Of a stretch of 11,329 nucleotides of DNA, positions 1 through 11,329 are shown one piece after another. The position numbers were made by a program, and so were the translations under genes. The DNA comes from a virus (taxonomy: Duplodnaviria; Heunggongvirae; Uroviricota; Caudoviricetes), in the IMG/VR virus record IMGVR_UViG_2778261360_000002, positions 1 through 11,329 of that record; one strand, given 5' to 3'. A model generated the notes under the pieces. It was given only the letters and a program-made list of their open reading frames with translations, was not told the origin of the DNA and did no database searches. Within the stretch, counting starts at the first letter, position 1. The number at the start of each line of letters is the position of its first letter.

Positions 1-6
1 GTCCGT

Positions 7-450
7 CTATATCAGATGGGCGTCTAAGTTACCAATTTTCGTCTGATGGCTACATACGGCGGTCAGTTTACGCTTACCATCCATCCACTCGGTAACGCAG
101 ATCGGATGATTACGGTCCTTGCGGTAAATCCGGCATGTACAGGATTCATTGTCCTGCTCAAAGTCCATGCCATCAAACTGCTGGTTTTCATTGATGATGC
201 GGGACCAGCCATCAACGCCCACCACCGGAACGATGCCATTCTGCTTATCAGGAAAGGCGTAAATTTCTTTCGTCCACGGATTAAGGCCGTACTGGTTGGC
301 AACGATCAACAATGCGATGAACTGCGCATCGCTGGCATCACCTTTAAATGCCGTCTGGCGAAGAGTGGTGATCAGTTCCTGTGGGTCGACAGAATCCATG
401 CCGACACGTTCAGCCAGCTTCCCTGCCAGCGTTGCGAGTGCTGTACTCAT
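7..450 (-). CDS. bet: Bet (RecT-family single-strand annealing protein), about 125 N-terminal residues lambda-like, then an unrelated 22-aa tail and stop; probably a truncated remnant
   Basis: Translation begins MSTALATLAGKLAERVGMDSVDPQELITTLRQTAF and matches lambda Bet as I recall it up to ...VTEWMD, then diverges and stops at 7-9. Lambda Bet is about 261 aa. The first ~75 nt of the window do not resemble lambda. Confidence 0.7.
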   Translation of the reverse strand: MSTALATLAGKLAERVGMDSVDPQELITTLRQTAFKGDASDAQFIALLIVANQYGLNPWTKEIYAFPDKQNGIVPVVGVDGWSRIINENQQFDGMDFEQDNESCTCRIYRKDRNHPICVTEWMDGKRKLTAVCSHQTKIGNLDAHLI

Positions 451-455
451 CCGTT

Positions 456-872
456 TTATACCTCTGAATCAATATCAACCTGGTGGCGGGCAATAGTTTC
501 AACCATGTACCGGATGTGTTCTGCCATGCGTTCCTGAAACTCAACATCGTCATCAAACGCACGGGTAATGGCTTTTTTGCTGGCCCCGTGGCGTTGCAAA
601 TGATCGATGCATAGCGATTCAAACAGGTGCTGGGGCAGGCCTTTTTCCATGTCGTCTGCCAGTTCTGCCTCTTTCTCTTCACGGGCTATCTGCTGGTAGT
701 GACGCGCCCAGCTCTGAGCCTCAAGACGATCCTGAATGTAATAAGCGTTCATGGCCGAACTCCTGAAATAGCTGTGAAAATATCGCCCGCGAAATGCCGG
801 GCTGATTAGGAAAACAGGAAAGGGGGTTAGTGAATGCTTTTGCTTGATCTCAGTTTCAGTATTAATATCCAT
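456..872 (-). CDS. gam: Gam, host RecBCD nuclease inhibitor (138-aa long form; the 98-aa GamS form would start at the internal Met)
   Basis: Translation [59 protein letters not shown]... is near-identical to lambda Gam; lies 5 nt downstream of the bet start as in lambda. Confidence 0.9.
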
Positions 873-970
873 TTTTTATAAGCGTCGACGGCCTCACGAA
901 ACATCTTTTCATCGCCAATAAAAGTGGCGATAGTGAATTTAGTCTGGATAGCCATAAGTGTTTGATCCAT
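827..970 (-). CDS. kil: Kil, host-killing/FtsZ-inhibiting protein (47 aa)
   Basis: The internal Met of the 89-aa track ORF gives [47 protein letters not shown], matching lambda Kil; overlaps the gam start and the cIII end as in lambda. Confidence 0.85.
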
Positions 971-1103
971 TTTTGGGGACTCCTGGCTGATTAAGTATGT
1001 CGATAAGGCGTTTCCATCCGCTACGTAATTTACGGGTGATTCGTTCAAGTAAAGATTCGGAAGGGCAGCCAGCAACAGGCCACCCTGCAATGGCATATTG
1101 CAT
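939..1103 (-). CDS. cIII: CIII, inhibitor of FtsH-mediated CII degradation (54 aa)
   Basis: Hand translation from the ATG at 1103 (minus strand) gives [53 protein letters not shown] with stop at 939-941. Missing from the ORF track because it is short and overlaps kil in another frame. Confidence 0.85.
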   Translation of the reverse strand: MQYAIAGWPVAGCPSESLLERITRKLRSGWKRLIDILNQPGVPKNGSNTYGYPD

Positions 1104-1175
1104 GGTGTGCTCCTTATTTATACATAACGAAAAACGCCTCGAGTGAAGCGTTATTGGTATGCGGTAACGCCGCGC

Positions 1176-1544
1176 TCAGGCGGCTTTGATAGTCATATCA
1201 TCTGAATCAAATATTCCTGATGTATCGATATCGGTAATTCTTATTCCTTCGCTACCATCCATTGGAGGCCATCCTTCCTGACCATTTCCATCATTCCAGT
1301 CGAACTCACACATAACACCATATGCATTTAAGTCGCTTGAAATTGCTATAAGCAGAGCATGTTGCGCCAGCATGATTAATACAGCATTTAATACAGAGCC
1401 GTGTTTATTGAGTCGGTATTCAGAGTCTGACCAGAAATTATTAATCTGGTGAAGTTTTTCCTCTGTCATTACGTCATGGTCGATTTCAATTTCTATTGAT
1501 GCTTTCCAGTCGTAATCAATGATGTATTTTTTGATGTTTGACAT
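1176..1544 (-). CDS. ea10: Ea10 early protein (122 aa)
   Basis: Translation MSNIKKYIIDYDWKASIEIEIDHDVMTEEKLHQINNFWSDSEYRLNKHGSVLNAV... matches lambda Ea10; position upstream of cIII matches lambda. Confidence 0.85.
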   Translation of the reverse strand: MSNIKKYIIDYDWKASIEIEIDHDVMTEEKLHQINNFWSDSEYRLNKHGSVLNAVLIMLAQHALLIAISSDLNAYGVMCEFDWNDGNGQEGWPPMDGSEGIRITDIDTSGIFDSDDMTIKAA

Positions 1545-1563
1545 CTATTCATATCCTCATAGA

Positions 1564-1590
1564 TAAAAAATCGCCCTCACACTGGAGGGC
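1564..1590 (-). terminator. Intrinsic terminator in the pL operon immediately upstream of ea10 (tL2-like)
   Basis: Plus strand reads aaaaaa-tc-GCCCTC-acactg-GAGGGC; on the minus strand this is a 6-bp GC stem followed by a U-tract. Confidence 0.5.
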
Positions 1591-1713
1591 AAAGAAGATT
1601 TCCAATAATCAGAACAAGTCGGCTCCTGTTTAGTTACGAGCGACATTGCTCCGTGTATTCACTCGTTGGAATAAATACACAGTGCAGTGTTTATTAGTAT
1701 GCCTGTCTTTTAA

Positions 1714-2611
<898 letters not shown>

Positions 2612-2769
2612 CTGGATTCTCCTGTCAGTTAGCTTTGGTGGTGTGTGGCAGTTGTAGTCCTGAACGAAAACACCCCGCGATTGGCACATTGGCAGCTAAT
2701 CCGGAATCGCACTTCCGGCCAATGCTTCGTTTCGTATCATACACCCCAAAGCCTTCTGCTTTGAATGCT

Positions 2770-2800
2770 GCCCTTTTTCAGGGCTTAATTTTTAAGAGCA
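2770..2800 (-). promoter_or_regulatory. nutL: nutL (boxB GCCCTGAAAAAGGGC at 2770-2784, boxA-like TGCTCTTAA at 2792-2800, both on the minus strand)
   Basis: The boxB hairpin sequence is read directly from the reverse complement; boxA precedes boxB on the leftward transcript, upstream of N. Confidence 0.8.
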
Positions 2801-2844
2801 TCACCTTCATGGTGGTCAGTGCGTCCTGCTGATGGTTTAAAATT

Positions 2845-2912
2845 ACAAGAAAGATTGTATATTGTAAACAAGAAATATTGTAAAAAGAGGTGTGCAAAAC
2901 AAACTCCATTGT
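2845..2912. promoter_or_regulatory. 434-type OL operator cluster overlapping pL: 14-bp ACAA-N6-TTGT sites at 2845-2858, 2868-2881, 2899-2912
   Basis: Three 14-mers with the phage 434 operator half-sites ACAA/TTGT (acaagaaagattgt, acaagaaatattgt, acaaactccattgt) between nutL and the immunity genes. Confidence 0.75.
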
Positions 2913-2962
2913 TTTTAAACGGAAAATAGTTTGTTTTTTGGTTATTGAGATTGAGGTGGGGA

Positions 2963-4315
<1,353 letters not shown>

Positions 4316-4323
4316 GACATTCC

Positions 4324-4355
4324 CGTTCTTACACATCCCCGCCCTGAAAAAGGGC
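4324..4355 (+). promoter_or_regulatory. nutR: nutR (boxA-like CGTTCTTAC at 4324-4332, boxB GCCCTGAAAAAGGGC at 4341-4355), followed by the tR1 region
   Basis: Exact boxB hairpin sequence immediately downstream of cro, as in lambda. Confidence 0.8.
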
Positions 4356-4404
4356 ATCCAATTAAACCACACCTATGGTGTATGCATTTATTTGCATACA
4401 TTCA

Positions 4405-4460
4405 ATTAATTGTTATCTAAGGAAATACTTACATATGGTTCGTGCAAACAAACGCAACGA
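4405..4460 (-). promoter_or_regulatory. pRE region with CII-binding direct repeats TTGC-N6-TTGC (minus strand, plus coordinates 4444-4457) overlapping the cII 5' end
   Basis: Plus strand gcaaacaaacgcaa is the reverse complement of TTGCGTTTGTTTGC. Position at the cII start matches lambda pRE architecture. Confidence 0.65.
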
Positions 4461-4728
4461 GGCTCTACGAATCGAGAGTGCGTTGCTTAACAAAATCGCA
4501 ATGCTTGGAACTGAGAAGACAGCGGAAGCTGTGGGAGTTGATAAGTCGCAGATCAGCAGGTGGAAGAGAGACTGGATTCCAAAGTTCTCAATGCTGCTTG
4601 CTGTTCTTGAATGGGGTGTCGTTGACGACGACATGGCTCGATTGGCGCGACAAGTTGCTGCGATTCTCACCAATAAAAAACGCCCGGCGGCAACCGAGCG
4701 TTCTGAACAAATCCAGATGGAGTTCTGA
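4435..4728 (+). CDS. cII: CII transcriptional activator (97 aa)
   Basis: MVRANKRNEALRIESALLNKIAMLGTEKTAEAVGVDKSQISRWKRDWIPKFSMLLAVLEWGVVDDDMARLARQVAAILTNKKRPAATERSEQIQMEF matches lambda CII. The true start is the internal Met of the track ORF. Confidence 0.9.
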   Translation: MVRANKRNEALRIESALLNKIAMLGTEKTAEAVGVDKSQISRWKRDWIPKFSMLLAVLEWGVVDDDMARLARQVAAILTNKKRPAATERSEQIQMEF

Positions 4729-4750
4729 GGTCATTACTGGATCAATCCAC
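4674..4750 (-). ncRNA. oop: oop antisense RNA (about 77 nt) covering the cII 3' end, with intrinsic terminator
   Basis: Minus-strand sequence from about 4750 down to the U-tract at about 4675 matches lambda oop RNA as I recall it (…CCAGUAAUGACCUCAGAACUCCAUCUGGAUUUGUUCAGAACGCUCGGUUGCCGCCGGGCGUUUUUU). Confidence 0.75.
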
Positions 4751-4760
4751 AGGAGTCATT

Positions 4761-5660
4761 ATGACAAATACAGCAAAAATACTCAACTTCTGCAGAGGTA
4801 ACTTTGCCAAACAGGAGCGTAATGTGGCAGATCTCGATGATGGTTACGCCAGACTATCAAATATGCTGCTTGAGGCTTATTCAGGCGCAGATCTGACCAA
4901 GCGACAGTTTAAAGTGCTGCTTGCCATTCTGCGTAAAACCTATGGGTGGAATAAACCAATGGACAGAATCACCGATTCTCAACTTAGCGAGATTACAAAG
5001 TTACCCGTCAAACGGTGCAATGAAGCCAAGTTAGAACTCGTCAGAATGAATATTATCAAGCAACAATGCGGCATGTTTGGACCAAATAAAAACATCTCAG
5101 AATGGTGTATCCCTCAAAACGAGGGAAAATCCCCTAAAACGAGGGATAAAACATCCCTCAAATTGGGGGATTGCTATCCCTCAAAACAGGGGGACACAAA
5201 AGACACTATTACAAAAGAAAAAAGAAAAGATTATTCGTCCGAGAATTCTGGCGAATCCTCTGACCAGCCAGAAAACGATCTTTCTGTGGTTAAACCGGAT
5301 GCTGCAATTCAGAGCGGCAGCAAGTGGGGGACAGCAGAAGACCTGACCGCCGCAGAGTGGATGTTTGACATGGTGAAGACTATCGCACCATCAGCCAGAA
5401 AACCGAATTTTGCTGGGTGGGCTAACGATATCCGCCTGATGCGTGAACGTGACGGACGCAACCATCGCGACATGTGTGTACTGTTCCGCTGGGCATGCCA
5501 GGACAACTTCTGGTCCGGTAACGTGCTTAGCCCGGCCAAACTCCGCGACAAGTGGACCCAGCTCGAAATCAACCGTAACAAGCAACAGGCAGCCGTGACA
5601 GCCAGCAAACCAAAACTCGACTTGACAAACACAGACTGGATTTACGGGGTGGATCTATGA
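4761..5660 (+). CDS. O: Replication initiator O (299 aa)
   Basis: MTNTAKILNFCRGNFAKQERNVADLDDGYARLSNMLLEAY... matches lambda O; the gene contains the ori iterons. Confidence 0.9.
   Translation: MTNTAKILNFCRGNFAKQERNVADLDDGYARLSNMLLEAYSGADLTKRQFKVLLAILRKTYGWNKPMDRITDSQLSEITKLPVKRCNEAKLELVRMNIIKQQCGMFGPNKNISEWCIPQNEGKSPKTRDKTSLKLGDCYPSKQGDTKDTITKEKRKDYSSENSGESSDQPENDLSVVKPDAAIQSGSKWGTAEDLTAAEWMFDMVKTIAPSARKPNFAGWANDIRLMRERDGRNHRDMCVLFRWACQDNFWSGNVLSPAKLRDKWTQLEINRNKQQAAVTASKPKLDLTNTDWIYGVDL
5110..5240. repeat. ori-lambda: four about 19-bp iterons (ATCCCTCAAAACGAGGGA-type, about 5110-5195) followed by an A/T-rich unwinding region (about 5196-5240) inside O
   Basis: Four tandem copies of the tccctcaaaac-N-ggga motif are visible, then aaagacactattacaaaagaaaaaagaaaagattatt. 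Confidence 0.85.
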
Positions 5661-6358
5661 AAAACATCGCCGCACAGATGGTTAACTTTGACCGTGAGCA
5701 GATGCGTCGGATCGCCAACAACATGCCGGAACAGTACGACGAAAAGCCTCAGGTACAGCAGGTAGCGCAGATCATCAACGGTGTGTTCAGCCAGTTACTG
5801 GCAACTTTCCCGGCGAGCCTGGCTAACCGTGACCAGAACGAACTGAACGAAATCCGCCGCCAGTGGGTTCTGGCTTTCCGGGAAAACGGGATCACCACAA
5901 TGGAACAGGTTAACGCAGGAATGCGCGTAGCCCGTCGGCAGAATCGACCATTTCTGCCATCACCCGGGCAGTTTGTTGCATGGTGCCGGGAAGAAGCATC
6001 CGTTATCGCCGGACTGCCAAACGTCAGCGAGCTGGTTGATATGGTTTACGAGTATTGCCGGAAGCGAGGCCTGTATCCGGATGCGGAGTCTTATCCGTGG
6101 AAATCAAACGCGCACTACTGGCTGGTTACCAACCTGTATCAGAACATGCGGGCCAATGCGCTTACTGATGCGGAATTACGCCGTAAGGCCGCAGATGAGC
6201 TTGTCCATATGACTGCGAGAATTAACCGTGGTGAGGCGATCCCTGAACCAGTAAAACAACTTCCTGTCATGGGCGGTAGACCTCTAAATCGTGTTCAGGC
6301 GCTGGCGAAGATCGCAGAAATTAAAGCTAAGTTCGGACTGAAAGGAGCAAGTCTATGA
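5657..6358 (+). CDS. P: Replication protein P (DnaB helicase loader, 233 aa)
   Basis: MKNIAAQMVNFDREQMRRIANNMPEQYDEKPQVQQVAQIINGVFSQ... matches lambda P; ATGA overlap with the O stop. Confidence 0.9.
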   Translation: MKNIAAQMVNFDREQMRRIANNMPEQYDEKPQVQQVAQIINGVFSQLLATFPASLANRDQNELNEIRRQWVLAFRENGITTMEQVNAGMRVARRQNRPFLPSPGQFVAWCREEASVIAGLPNVSELVDMVYEYCRKRGLYPDAESYPWKSNAHYWLVTNLYQNMRANALTDAELRRKAADELVHMTARINRGEAIPEPVKQLPVMGGRPLNRVQALAKIAEIKAKFGLKGASL

Positions 6359-6645
6359 CGGGCAAAGAGGCAATTATTCATTATCTGGAGACGCACAAGA
6401 GCTTCTGTGCGCCGGACGTTGCCGCGCTAACAGGCGCAACAGTAACCAGCATAAATCAGGCTGCGGCTAAAATGGCACGGGCAGGTCTTCTGGTTATCGA
6501 AGGTAAGGTCTGGCGAACGGTGTATTACCGGTTTGCTACCAAGGAAGAACGGGAAGGAAAGATGAGCACGAACCTAATTTTTAAGGAGTGTCGCCAGAGT
6601 GCCGCGATGAAACGGGTATTGGCGGTATATGGAGTTAAAAGATGA
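6355..6645 (+). CDS. ren: Ren (protection from Rex exclusion, 96 aa)
   Basis: MTGKEAIIHYLETHKSFCAPDVAALTGATVTSINQAAAKMARAGLLVIEGKVWRTVYYRFATKEEREGKMSTNLIFKECRQSAAMKRVLAVYGVKR matches lambda Ren; ATGA overlap with the P stop. Confidence 0.85.
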   Translation: MTGKEAIIHYLETHKSFCAPDVAALTGATVTSINQAAAKMARAGLLVIEGKVWRTVYYRFATKEEREGKMSTNLIFKECRQSAAMKRVLAVYGVKR

Positions 6646-6669
6646 CCATCTACATCACTGAGCTAATAA

Positions 6670-6700
6670 CAGGCCTGCTGGTAATCGCAGGCCTTTTTAT
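6670..6700 (+). terminator. tR2 intrinsic terminator between ren and ninB
   Basis: caGGCCTGCtggtaatcGCAGGCCttttta: 8-bp stem, 8-nt loop, T-tract. Confidence 0.8.
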
Positions 6701-6718
6701 TTGGGGGAGAGGGAAGTC

Positions 6719-7159
6719 ATGAAAAAACTAACCTTTGAAATTCGATCTCCAGCACATCAGCAGAACGCTATTCACGCAGTACAGCAAATCCTTCCAGACC
6801 CAACCAAACCAATCGTAGTAACCATTCAGGAACGCAACCGCAGCTTAGACCAGAATCGAAAGCTTTGGGCTTGCCTTGGTGACGTCTCTCGTCAGGTTGA
6901 ATGGCATGGTCGCTGGCTGGATGCAGAAAGCTGGAAGTGTGTGTTTACCGCAGCATTAAAGCAGCAGGATGTTGTTCCTAACCTTGCCGGGAATGGCTTT
7001 GTGGTAATAGGCCAGTCAACCAGCAGGATGCGTGTAAGCGAATTTGCGGAGCTATTAGAGCTTATACAGGCATTCGGTACAGAGCGTGGCGTTAAGTGGT
7101 CAGACGAAGCGCGACTGGCTCTGGAATGGAAAGCGCGATGGGGAGACAGGGCGGCATGA
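6719..7159 (+). CDS. ninB: NinB (Orf family recombination mediator, 146 aa)
   Basis: From the internal Met: [84 protein letters not shown]... matches lambda NinB. Confidence 0.85.
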
Positions 7160-7338
7160 GACGACAGCGACGAAGTTTCACCGACATCATCTGCGAAAAC
7201 TGCAAATACCTTCCAACGAAACGCTCCAGAAATAAACGCAAGCCAATCCCAAAAGAATCTGACGTAAAAACCTTCAACTACACGGCTCACCTGTGGGATA
7301 TCCGGTGGCTAAGACATCGTGCGAGGAAAACAAGGTGA
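7156..7338 (+). CDS. ninE: NinE (60 aa)
   Basis: The internal Met of the track ORF gives [60 protein letters not shown], matching lambda NinE. The ATGA overlap with the ninB stop implies ninC and ninD are absent here. Confidence 0.85.
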
Positions 7339-7424
7339 TTGACGCGATGATTTATTCGGGGCTATATTCCTCACGCGCCAGCAAAATCTGGCGTCGGGAT
7401 TAGCACCCCGGATATCGAAACGGT

Positions 7425-7450
7425 GCATAACCGCGCTGGCGGTTTTTTTA
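7425..7450 (+). terminator. Candidate intrinsic terminator within the ninE-ant intergenic leader
   Basis: gcataaCCGCgctgGCGGtttttttatgc: short GC stem plus T8, flanked by the gcataa/ttatgc inverted repeat. Confidence 0.45.
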
Positions 7451-7613
7451 TGCGCTAAGCACAGTCACATTCGCGATTTATGGCGGGCTGTGTGGGGGAG
7501 CCGAAAGGCTCGCCGGATGTTTCGACCGGTAGTGCTAACCCCGCACAGTTCGCCACCACGATGATTAGCACCTGACGGTGGCGAGGTAAAAATTATCGAA
7601 ACGCGAGGTCATT

Positions 7614-8291
7614 ATGGCTGTTCAAATTTCTGTCGAAAACCTTTCCCCTGTTACCTATAACCAGATCCCCGTAATTACTACTGAACTGTTGGCTCACCTT
7701 TACGGAACAAAAATCAAAAACATTTCTGATAACTTTCTGAACAACACGACGCGATTCATGCCCGGAAAGCATTACTTTAAAATTGAAAAAAACGAATTAC
7801 GCGAGTTTAAGAACAGACCCGAAACAATCGGGTTAGTTGGTAAAAATGCCCGCGCCCTCATCCTCTGGACAGAACGCGGCGCAGCCCGTCACGCAAAAAT
7901 GCTCGAAACCGATCAGGCGTGGGAAGTGTTCGAAAAACTGGAAGACTGCTATTTCAGCCAGTGCGAGAAAAATACTGGCAAACAAGAGAAGAAGCCCAAC
8001 GGGCTTTCCGCAAAAGAAACAGACAGCCTTGTATGGCTGTGGGATTATGCCAACCGCTCACAGGCATTGTTCCGTGAGTTGTATCCCGCATTAAAACTGA
8101 TTCAGTCTGGCTATTCCGGCATATGCTACGACTACGGTCATGAGTTCTCGTATGTTATTGGAATGGCGAGAGACGTTTTAATTAATCACACACGAGATGT
8201 TGATATCAATGAGCCAGACGGACCAACGAACCTTCTGGCATGGGAAAGGCTTAAGAACAAAGAATTGCCGCCTTCACTGCATCGCTACTGA
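7614..8291 (+). CDS. Antirepressor-like phage regulatory protein (225 aa; N-terminal domain resembles the antirepressor/ORF6N-type fold), nin-region moron
   Basis: SD GAGGT 5 nt before the ATG. N-terminal region ...[38 protein letters not shown]...[34 protein letters not shown] is typical of phage antirepressor N-terminal domains by recollection only. Moderately AT-rich. Followed by a strong terminator. Confidence 0.6.
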
Positions 8292-8309
8292 CAATTGACA
8301 ACTTAACAA

Positions 8310-8332
8310 ACCCAGCTTCGGCTGGGTTTTTT
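8310..8332 (+). terminator. Intrinsic terminator after the antirepressor-like gene
   Basis: aCCCAGCttcgGCTGGGtttttt: 6-7-bp stem, tetraloop, T6. Confidence 0.8.
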
Positions 8333-8365
8333 ATTGCTGAATTTTCAATGTGAGAGGACATGACA

Positions 8366-9088
8366 ATGAATGAGCTGATAAATAGCAATGCCATCAAAAT
8401 GACAAGCATTGAAATCGCTGAGTTGGTGGGAAGTCGTCATGACAAGGTGAAACAATCCATTGAACGACTGGCTGTTCGAGGTGTGATCCGAAATCCCCCA
8501 ATGGTGGTTTTCGAAAAAATCAATAACTTAGGATTACTTCGTGGCGTAGAGGCTTACGTTTTTGAGGGCGAACAAGGTAAGCGCGACAGCATTATTGTCG
8601 TTGCCCAGTTGTCGCCGGAATTCACCGCTCGCCTTGTTGACCGCTGGCGAGAACTCGAAGGGGCAACCGCGAAAATACCACAAACCTTTTCTGAGGCATT
8701 GCGCCTTGCGGCCGACCTTGAAGACCAGAAGGCTGAACTGGAGAAACAGCTTGCTCTCGCAGCACCTAAAGTTGAGTTTGCCGATCGCGTTGGCGAGTCC
8801 AGCGGAATTTTGATTGGAAACTTTGCAAAGGTTGTTGGTATTGGTCCAAACAAACTGTTTGCGTGGATGCGCGATCACAAAATCCTTATTGCTTCAGGCT
8901 CCCGGCGCAATGTGCCAATGCAGGAATATATGGATCGTGGCTATTTCACAGTGAAAGAAACAGCGGTCAACACAAATCACGGAATACAGATATCGTTCAC
9001 CACAAAAATCACCGGGCGTGGTCAACAGTGGCTGACCAGAAAGCTGCTCGATAACGGAATGCTGAAAGTAACAGGGGAGGCTGCTTAA
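8366..9088 (+). CDS. Rha-family phage regulatory protein with C-terminal KilA-C/antirepressor-type domain (Roi-like); start at 8366 preferred, 8360 possible
   Basis: N-terminus ...[40 protein letters not shown] is a Rha-type (Phage_pRha) signature. The C-terminal half ...[38 protein letters not shown]... resembles the KilA-C/Ant C-terminal domain. SD GAGAGGA is 7 nt before the ATG at 8366. Confidence 0.7.
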
Positions 9089-9693
9089 TGGCTAAACCAG
9101 CGCGAAGGAAATGCAAAATATGCAAGGAATGTTTTCACCCGGCATTCTCAAATCAGTGGTGGTGCTGCCCGGAACACGGAACTCAATTAGCACTCGAACG
9201 ACGAAGTAAAGAACGCGAAAAAGCGGAAAAAGCAGCAGAGAAGAAACGACGACGAGAGGAGCAGAAACAGAAAGATAAACTGAAGATTCGAAAACTCGCC
9301 TTAAAGCCCCGCAGTTACTGGATTAAACAAGCCCAACAAGCCGTAAACGCCTTCGTCAGAGAAAGAGACCGCGACTTACCATGTATCTCGTGCGGAACGC
9401 TCACGTCTGCTCAGTGGGATGCCGGACATTACCGGACAACTGCTGCGGCACCTCAACTCCGATTTGATGAACGCAATATTCACAAGCAATGCGTGGTGTG
9501 CAACCAGCACAAAAGCGGAAATCTCGTTCCGTATCGCGTCGAACTGATTAGCCGCATCGGGCAGGAAGCAGTAGACGAAATCGAATCAAACCATAACCGC
9601 CATCGCTGGACTGTCGAAGAGTGCAGGGCCATCAAGGCGAAGTATCAGCAGAAACTTAAAGACCTGCGAAACAGCAGAAGTGAGGCCGCATGA
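9088..9693 (+). CDS. ninG: NinG (Rap) structure-specific recombination endonuclease (201 aa)
   Basis: [89 protein letters not shown]... matches lambda NinG/Rap. Confidence 0.85.
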
Positions 9694-9884
9694 CGTTCAC
9701 AGTAAAAACCATTCCTGACATGCTCGTTGAGGCATATGAAAATCAGACCGAGGTAGCCAGAATACTGAACTGCAATCGTGCCACAGTCAGAAAATACATT
9801 GGCGATAAAGAAGGGAAAAAGCACGCCGTCGTCAATGGCGTCCTTATGGTTCATCGCGGATGGGGTAAAGATACTGATGCGTGA
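9690..9884 (+). CDS. ninH: NinH (64 aa)
   Basis: [58 protein letters not shown]... resembles lambda NinH; ATGA overlap with the ninG stop. Confidence 0.8.
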
Positions 9885-10311
9885 TATCCGGCAGGTTCTT
9901 GAGCGCTGGGGTGCATGGGCGGCAAATAACCATGAGGATGTTACATGGTCGCCCATTGCTGCCGGATTTAAGGGACTGATCCCCGAAAAAGTAAAATCAC
10001 GTCCACAGTGTTGTGACGATGACGCGATGATTATATGCGGGTGTATGGCTCGCCTTAACAGGAACAACAGCGATCTGCATGACTTGCTGGTTGATTATTA
10101 CGTGTTGGGGGAGACGTTCATGGCGCTGGCACGGAAACATGGGTGCTCTGACACCTGTATAGGTAAACGCCTTCACAAAGCGGAGGGGATTGTTGAAGGC
10201 ATGCTGATGATGCTGGGAGTGAGGCTTGAGATGGATCGGTATGTTGAGCGTGAATTGCCGGGAGGGAGAACCTCTGTATTTTATCAGCGAAAAAATAGTT
10301 TACGATCGTAA
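9877..10311 (+). CDS. Q: Late-gene antiterminator Q, non-lambda type (phage 21/82, QuuD-like family, 144 aa)
   Basis: [60 protein letters not shown]... resembles E. coli prophage QuuD-type Q proteins by recollection. Occupies the Q position after ninH. The track ORF's N-terminal extension (start 9778) overlaps ninH and is rejected. Confidence 0.7.
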
Positions 10312-10358
10312 AAATCTGCATATCATGATAAGAGTGGTTACATTGCCACGCAGCCGAA

Positions 10359-10381
10359 CCCGCCGATGCGCGGGTTTTTTT
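10359..10381 (+). terminator. Intrinsic terminator about 50 nt downstream of Q (candidate tR' of a short pR' transcript, or the end of the Q transcript)
   Basis: CCCGCCgatgGCGCGGGttttttt: 6-bp GC stem, tetraloop, T7. Confidence 0.75.
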
Positions 10382-10561
10382 GTACCCAGAATCCTGTGAG
10401 CTATACGGAAAGTACACAGAAAGGAAGGTGCGACCGCAATTAATAACAAAATCTTAAAAATCGCATATGGCACTATTAGTTTTCTAAATATTGTATATTT
10501 TAAGTATTGCAGGATAACCCTGTAACGAAGTTTGCGTAACAGCATTTTGCTCTACGAGTTT

Positions 10562-10591
10562 GCCAGCCTCCCCTGGTGGCTGGCTTTTTTT
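10562..10591 (+). terminator. Second intrinsic terminator in the Q-distal region
   Basis: GCCAGCCtcccctggtGGCTGGCttttttt: 7-bp stem plus T7 on the plus strand. Confidence 0.7.
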
Positions 10592-10690
10592 GTATCCGTT
10601 CAACAGGAATGTTACATACCTCACAATTAAGTCAGTTGAATGTTGTCTGCCCGGATGAGAATTTGTTAGAAAAAAACTGCATGGTGAATC

Positions 10691-10732
10691 CCCCTGAGCG
10701 GAGGGGCGACTGGTGACGGTATAATCTCTGAT
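10691..10732 (+). promoter_or_regulatory. Candidate strong sigma70 promoter (perfect TATAAT at 10720-10725) with upstream palindrome CCCCTgagcggAGGGG (10691-10706); possible pR'-type late promoter
   Basis: Consensus -10 hexamer read directly; the -35 is weak, and the palindrome sits where a -35 or activator site would be. Confidence 0.4.
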
Positions 10733-10825
10733 TATCAAAACGAGAATGACGAGGGTTTAGTGGCACCGGGCTGAACTCACCGGGAGGCACCCGGCACCAT
10801 GCAATGGCACATAGCGCCACTCTCC

Positions 10826-10850
10826 AGCCCCTCTCCGGAGGGGCTTTCTT
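10826..10850 (+). terminator. Terminator-like hairpin AGCCCCTCtccgGAGGGGCT followed by a U-rich tract (TTCTT)
   Basis: 8-bp stem with tetraloop; about 115 nt downstream of the TATAAT promoter. The U-tract is interrupted, so efficiency is uncertain. Confidence 0.4.
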
Positions 10851-10856
10851 ATGGAC

Positions 10857-10884
10857 AAAAAAGCCCGCGCTGGGAGACGCGGGC
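10857..10884 (-). terminator. Minus-strand intrinsic terminator (hairpin GCCCGCG/CGCGGGC preceded on the plus strand by A6)
   Basis: Plus strand aaaaaaGCCCGCGctgggagaCGCGGGC; on the minus strand the hairpin is followed by a U6 tract. Confidence 0.5.
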
Positions 10885-11077
10885 GGCAAGGAATAAACAA
10901 TGAAACGTGAAGTAATATTTCAGCTGGCGAATAATACCCTATAGTAATCACTCTGCGCAACTGCGCGACCTTTTTCGAATTGCGGGCTGTAGTCTCCCTT
11001 CTGCCATTGTCCTGTAACTTCCGGACTTCAGCCCGCTCCTTATTTTACTCACAATATTATCCCGGCCGGGAGGATTC

Positions 11078-11329
11078 ATGGCATTTAAACACTATGATGT
11101 TGTCAGGGCGGCGTCGCCGTCAGACCTTGCGGAAAAGCTGACACACAAACTGAAAGAGGGCTGGCAGCCGTTTGGTAGTCCGGTGGCCATAACCCCTTAT
11201 ACCCTGATGCAGGCGATTACAGCAGAAGGTGATGTGGTGGTCAGTGGTGCAACTGAGCCGGATTGGTACTACGTCATCGTACTGGCCGGGCAGTCCAATG
11301 CCATGGCTTACGGTGAAGGGCTTCCGCTG
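11078..11329 (+). CDS. 5' part of a prophage NanS-p-like sialate O-acetylesterase (DUF1737-like N-terminal domain plus start of SGNH/SASA esterase domain); runs off the window end
   Basis: Hand translation MAFKHYDVVRAASPSDLAEKLTHKLKEGWQPFGSPVAITPYTLMQAITAEGDVVVSGATEPDWYYVIVLAGQSNAMAYGEGLPL with no stop before the window end. SD GGGAGGA upstream. The GQSN motif is typical of SASA-type esterases. Missing from the ORF track because it is open-ended. Confidence 0.65.
   Translation, partial: MAFKHYDVVRAASPSDLAEKLTHKLKEGWQPFGSPVAITPYTLMQAITAEGDVVVSGATEPDWYYVIVLAGQSNAMAYGEGLPL

Follow-up and report, generated by a model that had tools for sequence, protein, structure and literature searches.

What lies between the late antiterminator gene Q and the esterase gene nanS-p of a lambdoid prophage when that place holds no Shiga toxin (Stx) genes? 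We addressed this in IMG/VR virus record IMGVR_UViG_2778261360_000002, positions 1 to 11,329; 'the window' denotes this whole stretch of 11,329 nucleotides (nt). Its Q-to-nanS-p interval (10312-11077) measures 766 nt, lies inside a lambdoid Escherichia coli prophage and had been described, in a first-pass annotation made from the sequence alone, as an empty cargo locus with candidate small RNAs (sRNAs). It forms the leader of the late operon in a lambda-like E. coli prophage; Shiga-toxin and tRNA cargo are absent, while three sRNA genes known from toxin phages are retained. Very probably it acts in the way proposed below, as the leader of a Q933/Q21-type lambdoid prophage with an empty moron (cargo) site and three known prophage RNA genes. 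Nearly all of the signals listed for it are already known, in that they belong to elements described in the prophages of E. coli O157 Sakai.

The leader RNA from pR' to tR'

The first of the three RNAs begins at the late promoter just past Q, and the features that define it are these.

10299..10326, plus strand: late promoter pR' (TTTACG, 16-nt spacer, TATCAT), called independently by the promoter scan
10333..10590, plus strand: homologue of StxS-L, the 258-nt pR'-to-tR' leader RNA, by ungapped alignment (5/258 mismatches to Sp5, 9/258 to Sp15)
10504..10508, plus strand: RNase E site GU/AUU (GTATT), cut at 10505/10506, after +173; identical to Sp5
10506..10590, plus strand: homologue of StxS-S, the processed Hfq-binding sRNA (fold z-score -3.3)
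10562..10591, plus strand: tR', terminator and 3' end of StxS (stem 10562-10584 plus U7 at 10585-10591, -17.3 kcal/mol, z -4.0)

Window positions 9801-10590 align without a gap, over 790 nt, with the Sakai prophages Sp5 (96.5% identity) and Sp15 (94.8%), and the homology ends exactly at 10590; the last part of this alignment, the left 280 nt, covers the pR'-StxS-tR' unit mapped by experiment in both. The StxS homologue itself is 98% identical to its Sp5 counterpart and 96.5% identical to that of Sp15. For Sakai, Sy et al. 2020 (PMC7547250) place the pR' start 258 nt 5' of the Term-seq 3' end at tR', and describe two RNAs that bind Hfq, StxS-L of 258 nt and StxS-S of 74 nt, with an RNase E cut at GU/AUU at +173. 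Carried over by the ungapped alignment, the Sakai start from differential RNA sequencing (dRNA-seq) corresponds to 10333, the inferred start here, which is 22 nt past the Q stop and 7 nt past the TATCAT of pR'. The RNase E site's position likewise fits the published one, and the Term-seq 3' end falls at 10590 (+258), in the U tract of tR'. The first-pass annotation had noted two strong plus-strand terminators, and the stems of both (10356-10377 and 10562-10584) are indeed stable; since the Sakai 3' end maps to 10590, the second of them, which had been left unspecified, is the published tR'.

The seed core for pairing with rpoS, CCCUGUAACGAA (10518-10529, plus strand), lies within the StxS-S homologue, and none of the five mismatches to Sp5 falls in the seed. 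When the seed (10511-10538) was paired with the MG1655 rpoS leader, the predicted duplex at -133 to -95, which is the site used by DsrA, RprA and ArcZ, reached -25.6 kcal/mol, against -12.2±2.7 for shuffled sequences, not one of 1000 of which attained that value. This seed-limited test replaced a duplex of full-length StxS with the rpoS leader, which was uninformative because 35 of 300 shuffles were equally good. Weak, sub-threshold Rfam matches to RprA and DsrA also fall within 10506-10590. In Sakai, constitutive activity of pR', termination at tR' and activation of RpoS by StxS were shown, the function being backed by compensatory mutations, and some non-toxigenic phages are said by the same authors to carry StxS (PMC7547250). 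By homology, we take 10333-10590 to be the StxS gene in a non-toxigenic phage, the demonstrations of transcription, Hfq binding and processing being those made in Sakai.

The likeness to StxS (EcOnc15) of Stx1 and Stx2a phages extends to the position after a 144-residue Q, the length of 258 nt, the promoter, the RNase E site, the seed and tR'. The window differs in that stx is not found downstream, and by two nt in the tR' loop; since there is no stx gene downstream, the stx1B-repressing role of StxS would have no target in cis here. Phage lambda provides an older parallel in its 6S RNA, a constitutive short pR'-tR' leader that ends at tR' and is read through by Q. The window leader is a tR'-ended leader of the same type, but its sequence and its Q family are unrelated to those of lambda, and it would be processed to an Hfq-dependent sRNA.

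In phage Nil3 (AM051322), positions 986-1054, equivalent to window 10435-10503, carry a tR' annotation. No hairpin was found at 10435-10503 in either the sequence or the leader fold, the real terminators being some 55 nt farther upstream and some 60 nt farther downstream, and the Nil3 annotation was rejected as misplaced on that ground.

An empty cargo slot without a protein gene

10591..10607, no strand: empty cargo (moron) junction, with both flanks common to relatives and differing inserts

Just past tR' the homology breaks, at the place where relatives hold tRNAs, stx or both, which bears out the earlier suggestion of an empty cargo-integration site. About nine further bases are common to relatives and, about eight bases on, the shared block AATGTTA begins at 10608; the cargo of relatives is thus bracketed between about 10599 and 10608-10621. 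Aligning Stx and non-Stx prophages sets the limits of the empty site at 10591-10607 and reveals four states at 10590-10621, namely empty, tRNAs only, stx1AB, and tRNAs with stx2AB. The individual slots are occupied as follows.

Sp5: methyltransferase remnant, ileZ-argN-argO and stx2AB
Sp15: stx1AB
phi296 and Nil3: nothing but the three tRNAs
Window: about 17 nt

The slot corresponds to the classical moron site downstream of pR', where Tree et al. 2014 (PMC4104026) described pairs of sRNAs that converge. Of 5426 complete E. coli genomes, 90 have the contiguous empty junction and 682 have its tR' part; among the 291 phage records with the tR' part, none has the empty junction. As a separate observation, the DNA immediately past tR' in tRNA-carrying prophages is a short remnant of a DNA methyltransferase gene (1865-1963 of locus L002 and 1204-1273 of locus L004), which suggests that the tRNA cargo may have arrived along with flanking foreign DNA.

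The interval is bounded by two protein-coding genes.

9877..10311, plus strand: Q antiterminator gene, 144 amino acids, Q21/Q933 family (Pfam PF06530, E = 5e-52)
11078..11329, plus strand: 5' end of nanS-p (DUF1737 plus SASA esterase; Pfam DUF1737, E = 4e-17), continuing past the window edge

The Q protein matches the Q21 structures in the PDB (6P18 and 6JNX) with E = 6e-7, a distant kinship, and carries the label 'antiterminator Q family protein' in genomes of 99% identity; nanS-p is labelled a SASA-family carbohydrate esterase by RefSeq in near-identical genomes. Between them, the earlier view that the interval has neither a convincing protein gene nor a tRNA-like sequence holds up. No tRNA was detected by ARAGORN anywhere in the window, and none of the nine small open reading frames (ORFs) of the interval has a Pfam match at E<=0.01, the sole sub-threshold match being to YmjE (E = 0.033). 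Among 30 listed genomes about 99% identical to the window, including the O104:H4 outbreak strains and ML35, RefSeq places no gene between Q and the esterase. In one record, NZ_CP027394.1, the locus tags across this gap run from CEQ27_RS03240 to RS03230 with RS03235 absent, so that a feature may have been withdrawn there.

A hidden small protein gene is nevertheless conceivable, the best candidate being a minus-strand ORF of 80 codons (10300-10545) called by PHANOTATE and in older annotations. It is present with an ATG start, its equivalent is annotated as hypothetical in phi296, and in Sp5 an ORF is annotated beside StxS according to Sy et al. (PMC7547250). Against this, the Pfam result covers every ORF of the interval, no gene stands there in the current Sakai RefSeq annotation, in the O104:H4 record or under the match in the 30 listed genomes, and the ORF is antisense to an experimentally mapped RNA. 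We regard a coding role as scarcely credible.

Convergent small RNAs upstream of nanS-p

Past the empty slot, the interval continues with an sRNA of the STnc100 family.

10650..10856, plus strand: STnc100-family sRNA of the EcOnc27/EcOnc05 type, PasD-related (Rfam RF02076)
10689..10707, plus strand: conserved 5' stem-loop of STnc100 (the 'palindrome' of the first-pass annotation), paired in the Rfam consensus, 78-96% identical across relatives
10720..10725, plus strand: TATAAT in the variable loop of STnc100, probably no promoter
10826..10853, plus strand: STnc100 terminator (stem 10826-10845 plus UUUCUUAU tail, -18.0 kcal/mol)

The match to RF02076 covers the full model (positions 1-206) with 166.9 bits and E = 2e-38, far above the gathering threshold of 47 bits. 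STnc100 is present at the equivalent place in Sp5, Sp15, Sp4, O104:H4 and phi296, and the Sakai Hfq peaks EcOnc05 and EcOnc27 map to window 10711-10861. By Northern blotting, EcOnc27 appeared as RNAs of about 235 and 247 nt, the 247-nt form being destabilised without hfq, and EcOnc05 as one of about 222 nt (Tree et al. 2014, PMC4104026). Eleven transcribed STnc100 copies are known in EDL933, and Northern data come from homologues in that strain as well as in Sakai. STnc100 is considered related to PasD of EPEC; PasD2 adjoins the esterase gene, and more than 98% of PasD copies have a Q gene within 10 kb (Zhu, Shabalina and Storz 2026). The window RNA shares with STnc100, EcOnc27, EcOnc05 and PasD the full covariance model, its own terminator and a location between moron site and nanS-p; it is set apart by a central variable loop of the Sp15/phi296 type, with a chance TATAAT.

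From a CACAATT motif to the terminator tail the distance is 215-231 nt, and comparison with the published Northern sizes of 222-247 nt places the STnc100 5' end probably near 10605-10625. Two motifs were tried as its promoter and rejected: TTGAAT/TTGACA at 10636 is without a conserved -10 and is deleted in Sp15, and a TGnTAAAT-like motif at 10610-10618 is weak.

The first-pass annotation had read a perfect TATAAT with an upstream palindrome as a consensus promoter. Both elements are there; the promoter assignment did not survive, both being internal parts of STnc100. Were the TATAAT at 10720-10725 a real internal promoter, it would yield an RNA of about 120-130 nt from the STnc100 3' half. It is a perfect -10 hexamer some 125 nt 5' of a good terminator, and the 3' half is the best conserved part of STnc100 and the site of the Hfq peaks. 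On the other side, the hexamer was not called by the promoter scan because it is without a -35 element, it has no TG extension, it is absent from Sp5, Sp4 and Nil3, and TATAAT is not enriched in the window (2 observed, 4.7 expected). Moreover, the Northern sizes are 222-247 nt, not about 125. The hexamer was rejected as a promoter, and such a function is very improbable.

The third RNA is on the opposite strand, and its terminator abuts the STnc100 end at 10856.

10857..10930, minus strand: 3' part of a convergent RNA of the EcOnc08 type (terminator 10884-10857; the EcOnc08 Hfq peak maps to 10858-10930)
10936..11021, minus strand: upstream part of the same RNA, to which the EcOnc21 and EcOnc42 Hfq peaks map
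10931..10960, minus strand: candidate promoter (TTGCGC, 18-nt spacer, TATTAT), inferred from inspection of the sequence and not called by the scan
10954..10977, plus strand: small hairpin plus T5 (-7.0 kcal/mol), overlapping the -35 of the minus-strand promoter candidate
10982..11036, no strand: long-loop inverted repeat GCGGGCTG...CAGCCCGC (-22.6 kcal/mol, z -5.0; 0/200 shuffles fold as well)

The hairpin with U-rich tract at 10826-10850, the minus-strand terminator at 10857-10884 and the inverted repeat at 10982-11036 had all been pointed out from the sequence, and each is present within a few bases. The minus-strand terminator consists of stem 10884-10863 plus U6 (-16.9 kcal/mol). Over 10857-10949 the window matches Sp15 and Sp4 at 92-94% identity, and Sp5 at 42%. 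With the EcOnc08/21/42 RNAs of Sp4 and Sp15 the window RNA shares 92-94% identity, the same terminator and the same convergence on STnc100, with no notable difference. The size of about 271 nt determined for them by Northern blotting (Tree et al. 2014, Table S2, PMC4104026) would put the minus-strand 5' end near 11127, inside nanS-p. The candidate promoter at 10960-10931 would yield an RNA of about 68 nt; its layout is that of the TTGCGC-18-TAAAAT upstream of AsxR in Sp5. The sole minus-strand site called by the promoter scan, 11084-11056, would yield about 193 nt.

For the block 10950-11077, identity in Sp4, Sp5 and Sp15 amounts to 93-95%. The block contains the inverted repeat, which lies under the EcOnc21/42 Hfq peak, and the hairpin at 10954-10977, which is largely kept across the four prophages, Sp4 and Sp15 having two substitutions in it. 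The step from this block to neighbouring 10857-10949, with its 42% identity to Sp5, appears to mark either a sharp mosaic boundary or selection on the region upstream of nanS-p.

AsxR and AgvB are anti-sRNAs that share with the window RNA the slot, the strand, the convergence with a plus-strand sRNA and the TTGCGC with 18-nt spacer; in Sp5, AsxR lies at 3230-3282 (minus strand) of locus L004, adjoining STnc100 at 3023-3228. The Rfam models of AsxR (RF02703) and AgvB (RF02702) find no match in the window even at E<=5, nor does the Esr41 model, including in a permissive search. Membership was rejected, the models being silent, the conserved 42-nt 3' region absent and the body only 42% identical to Sp5. 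The minus-strand RNA is a positional analogue of AsxR/AgvB, not a member.

The density of signals stressed in the first-pass annotation is real: 8 terminator-like sites occur in 9800-11329, above the chance level of 1.5±1.4 in shuffled sequences, and between pR' and nanS-p there are five terminator-like sites on the plus strand. Such a stack might be read as mere insulation, silencing the late genes in the lysogen, with the short RNAs as inert by-products that have no function in trans. The number of plus-strand sites accords with this, as do the want of demonstrated targets for STnc100 and EcOnc08/21/42 and the description of the pR' RNA by Sy et al. (PMC7547250) as a by-product of antitermination. 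Yet the StxS seed is fully kept, shuffled sequences pair with the rpoS leader far less well than it does, and the function of Sakai StxS was demonstrated with the compensatory mutations mentioned above. Crosslinking to Hfq is known for the homologous RNAs, EcOnc27 has one form that loses stability without hfq, and the STnc100 structure is kept from Salmonella to E. coli. We consider pure insulation improbable, and favour the earlier proposal of short regulatory transcripts (a pR'/tR' leader, sRNAs and an antisense RNA), given that the window RNAs are homologous to StxS and to RNAs that are Hfq-crosslinked and Northern-verified.

Two further groups of RNA elements were seen elsewhere in the window. 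At 7362-7560 (plus strand) c4-a1b1, isrK and C4 antisense RNA follow one another (Rfam, 50.6-76.6 bits) directly 5' of ORFs 7614-8291 and 8360-9088. The series looks like the P1/P7-type immI (c4-ant) antirepressor control module, and a matching pair is present in the O104:H4 prophage (NZ_CP027394.1 locus, 203-390). At 1058-1116 (minus strand) the lambda cIII thermoregulator element (RF01804) is matched over its full length, with 88.5 bits.

Terminators, Q and the proposed working of the locus

We propose the following. In the lysogen, to judge from the homologues, pR' would be transcribed constitutively from 10333. Without Q, polymerase would halt at a hairpin close to the promoter (about +49) or at tR' (+258, 10590). 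RNase E would cut the 258-nt StxS-L at 10505/10506 to give a stable, Hfq-binding StxS-S, whose seed at 10518-10529 would pair with the rpoS leader at the site used by DsrA, RprA and ArcZ and would raise RpoS. The STnc100 RNA (plus strand, ending near 10850) and the EcOnc08/21/42-type RNA (minus strand, ending at 10857), the counterparts of which are Hfq ligands in O157 Sakai, would converge on back-to-back terminators. On induction, Q would load at pR' and form a nozzle at the RNA exit, as established for Q21, and the Q-modified polymerase would be expected to run through three to five terminators on the plus strand before it reaches nanS-p and then the lysis genes.

In the case of Q21, the nozzle sits on the RNA-exit channel and blocks terminator hairpins (Yin, Kaelber & Ebright 2019, 10.1101/651190). 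The order of Q homologue, pR', terminators and late genes is common to the Q21-type cassette and the window, with the differences that the window Q is distant from Q21 and that two tandem terminators precede the first late gene. A perfect palindrome of 14 bp, TTTACGATCGTAAA, overlaps both the Q stop codon and the pR' -35; within window 10277-10314 it is also the second unit of a 19-nt direct repeat with 74% identity. Both palindrome and pR' core are kept in the Q cassettes of Pantoea and Citrobacter, and this conservation makes the palindrome a candidate that may be the Q-binding element. TACATT at +7 to +12 of the pR' transcript was looked at as a candidate sigma-dependent pause, with no confident assignment. 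A Q of the E. coli type (82% identity) is also encoded by JARKOR010000135.1, a 2.1-kb contig in a metagenome-assembled genome of Candidatus Nanosynbacter, and is there probably an artefact of binning or contamination.

The first of the tandem terminators is as follows.

10356..10381, plus strand: promoter-proximal intrinsic terminator, +24 to +49 of the pR' transcript (-14.8 kcal/mol, z -2.6)

Its stem (10356-10377, with U7 at 10375-10381) is identical in Sp5 and Sp15, and in the sections of Sy et al. (PMC7547250) consulted this hairpin goes undiscussed. A Q-based locus search for comparison gave six loci, with one informative genome. This was Pantoea stewartii, whose Q homologue (80% protein identity) is accompanied by the same pR' core and a different, 13-pair terminator at about +32 to +70, followed directly by a gene, so that its cassette has a proximal-type terminator only; the Citrobacter cassette has the pR' core, without a clear hairpin in the aligned stretch. 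Because there is one informative relative, that the hairpin at 10356-10381 is the promoter-proximal member of a tandem terminator pair can be suggested only tentatively.

Several points weigh against the working proposed here. Every transcript end is carried over from homologues, at 84-98% identity, and the offsets between Sakai genome versions (+142, +135 and 0) were deduced from feature matches, although three exact coincidences (the start site, the +258 3' end and the +173 GU/AUU) back them. The proximal terminator, unmentioned in the sections consulted of Sy et al., looks strong and, if efficient, would allow little StxS-L to be made. The promoter scan and inspection of the sequence found no convincing promoter for STnc100, and the scan found none near 11127 for a 271-nt minus-strand RNA. 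Finally, neither a Q-binding element nor a sigma-dependent pause element could be assigned in the window.

Two additional possibilities, taken jointly, seem unlikely: that the proximal hairpin is the primary Q terminator, and that the minus-strand RNA is antisense to nanS-p. The interval would then amount to more than three sRNA genes independent of one another. If true, the hairpin at +24 to +49 would be the terminator that is ancestral in this Q family and the primary one to respond to Q, and partial read-through of it would set the amount of StxS. The minus-strand RNA, if indeed about 271 nt long, would span the ribosome-binding site and start codon of nanS-p and could silence the esterase in cis in lysogens.

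Since every major component is published, this work is a good annotation rather than a discovery; it has little importance beyond annotation, with two small leads in the proximal terminator and in a possible control of nanS-p by antisense RNA. Since none of the 766 nt is annotated in RefSeq records, the RNA genes could be entered there. The limits of the empty stx/tRNA slot, now placed at the level of single bases, help to trace the gain and loss of toxin cassettes. A non-toxigenic prophage, found also in O104:H4 and ML35, thus retains in full the set of sRNAs that Stx phages have, namely StxS, STnc100 and EcOnc08/42.

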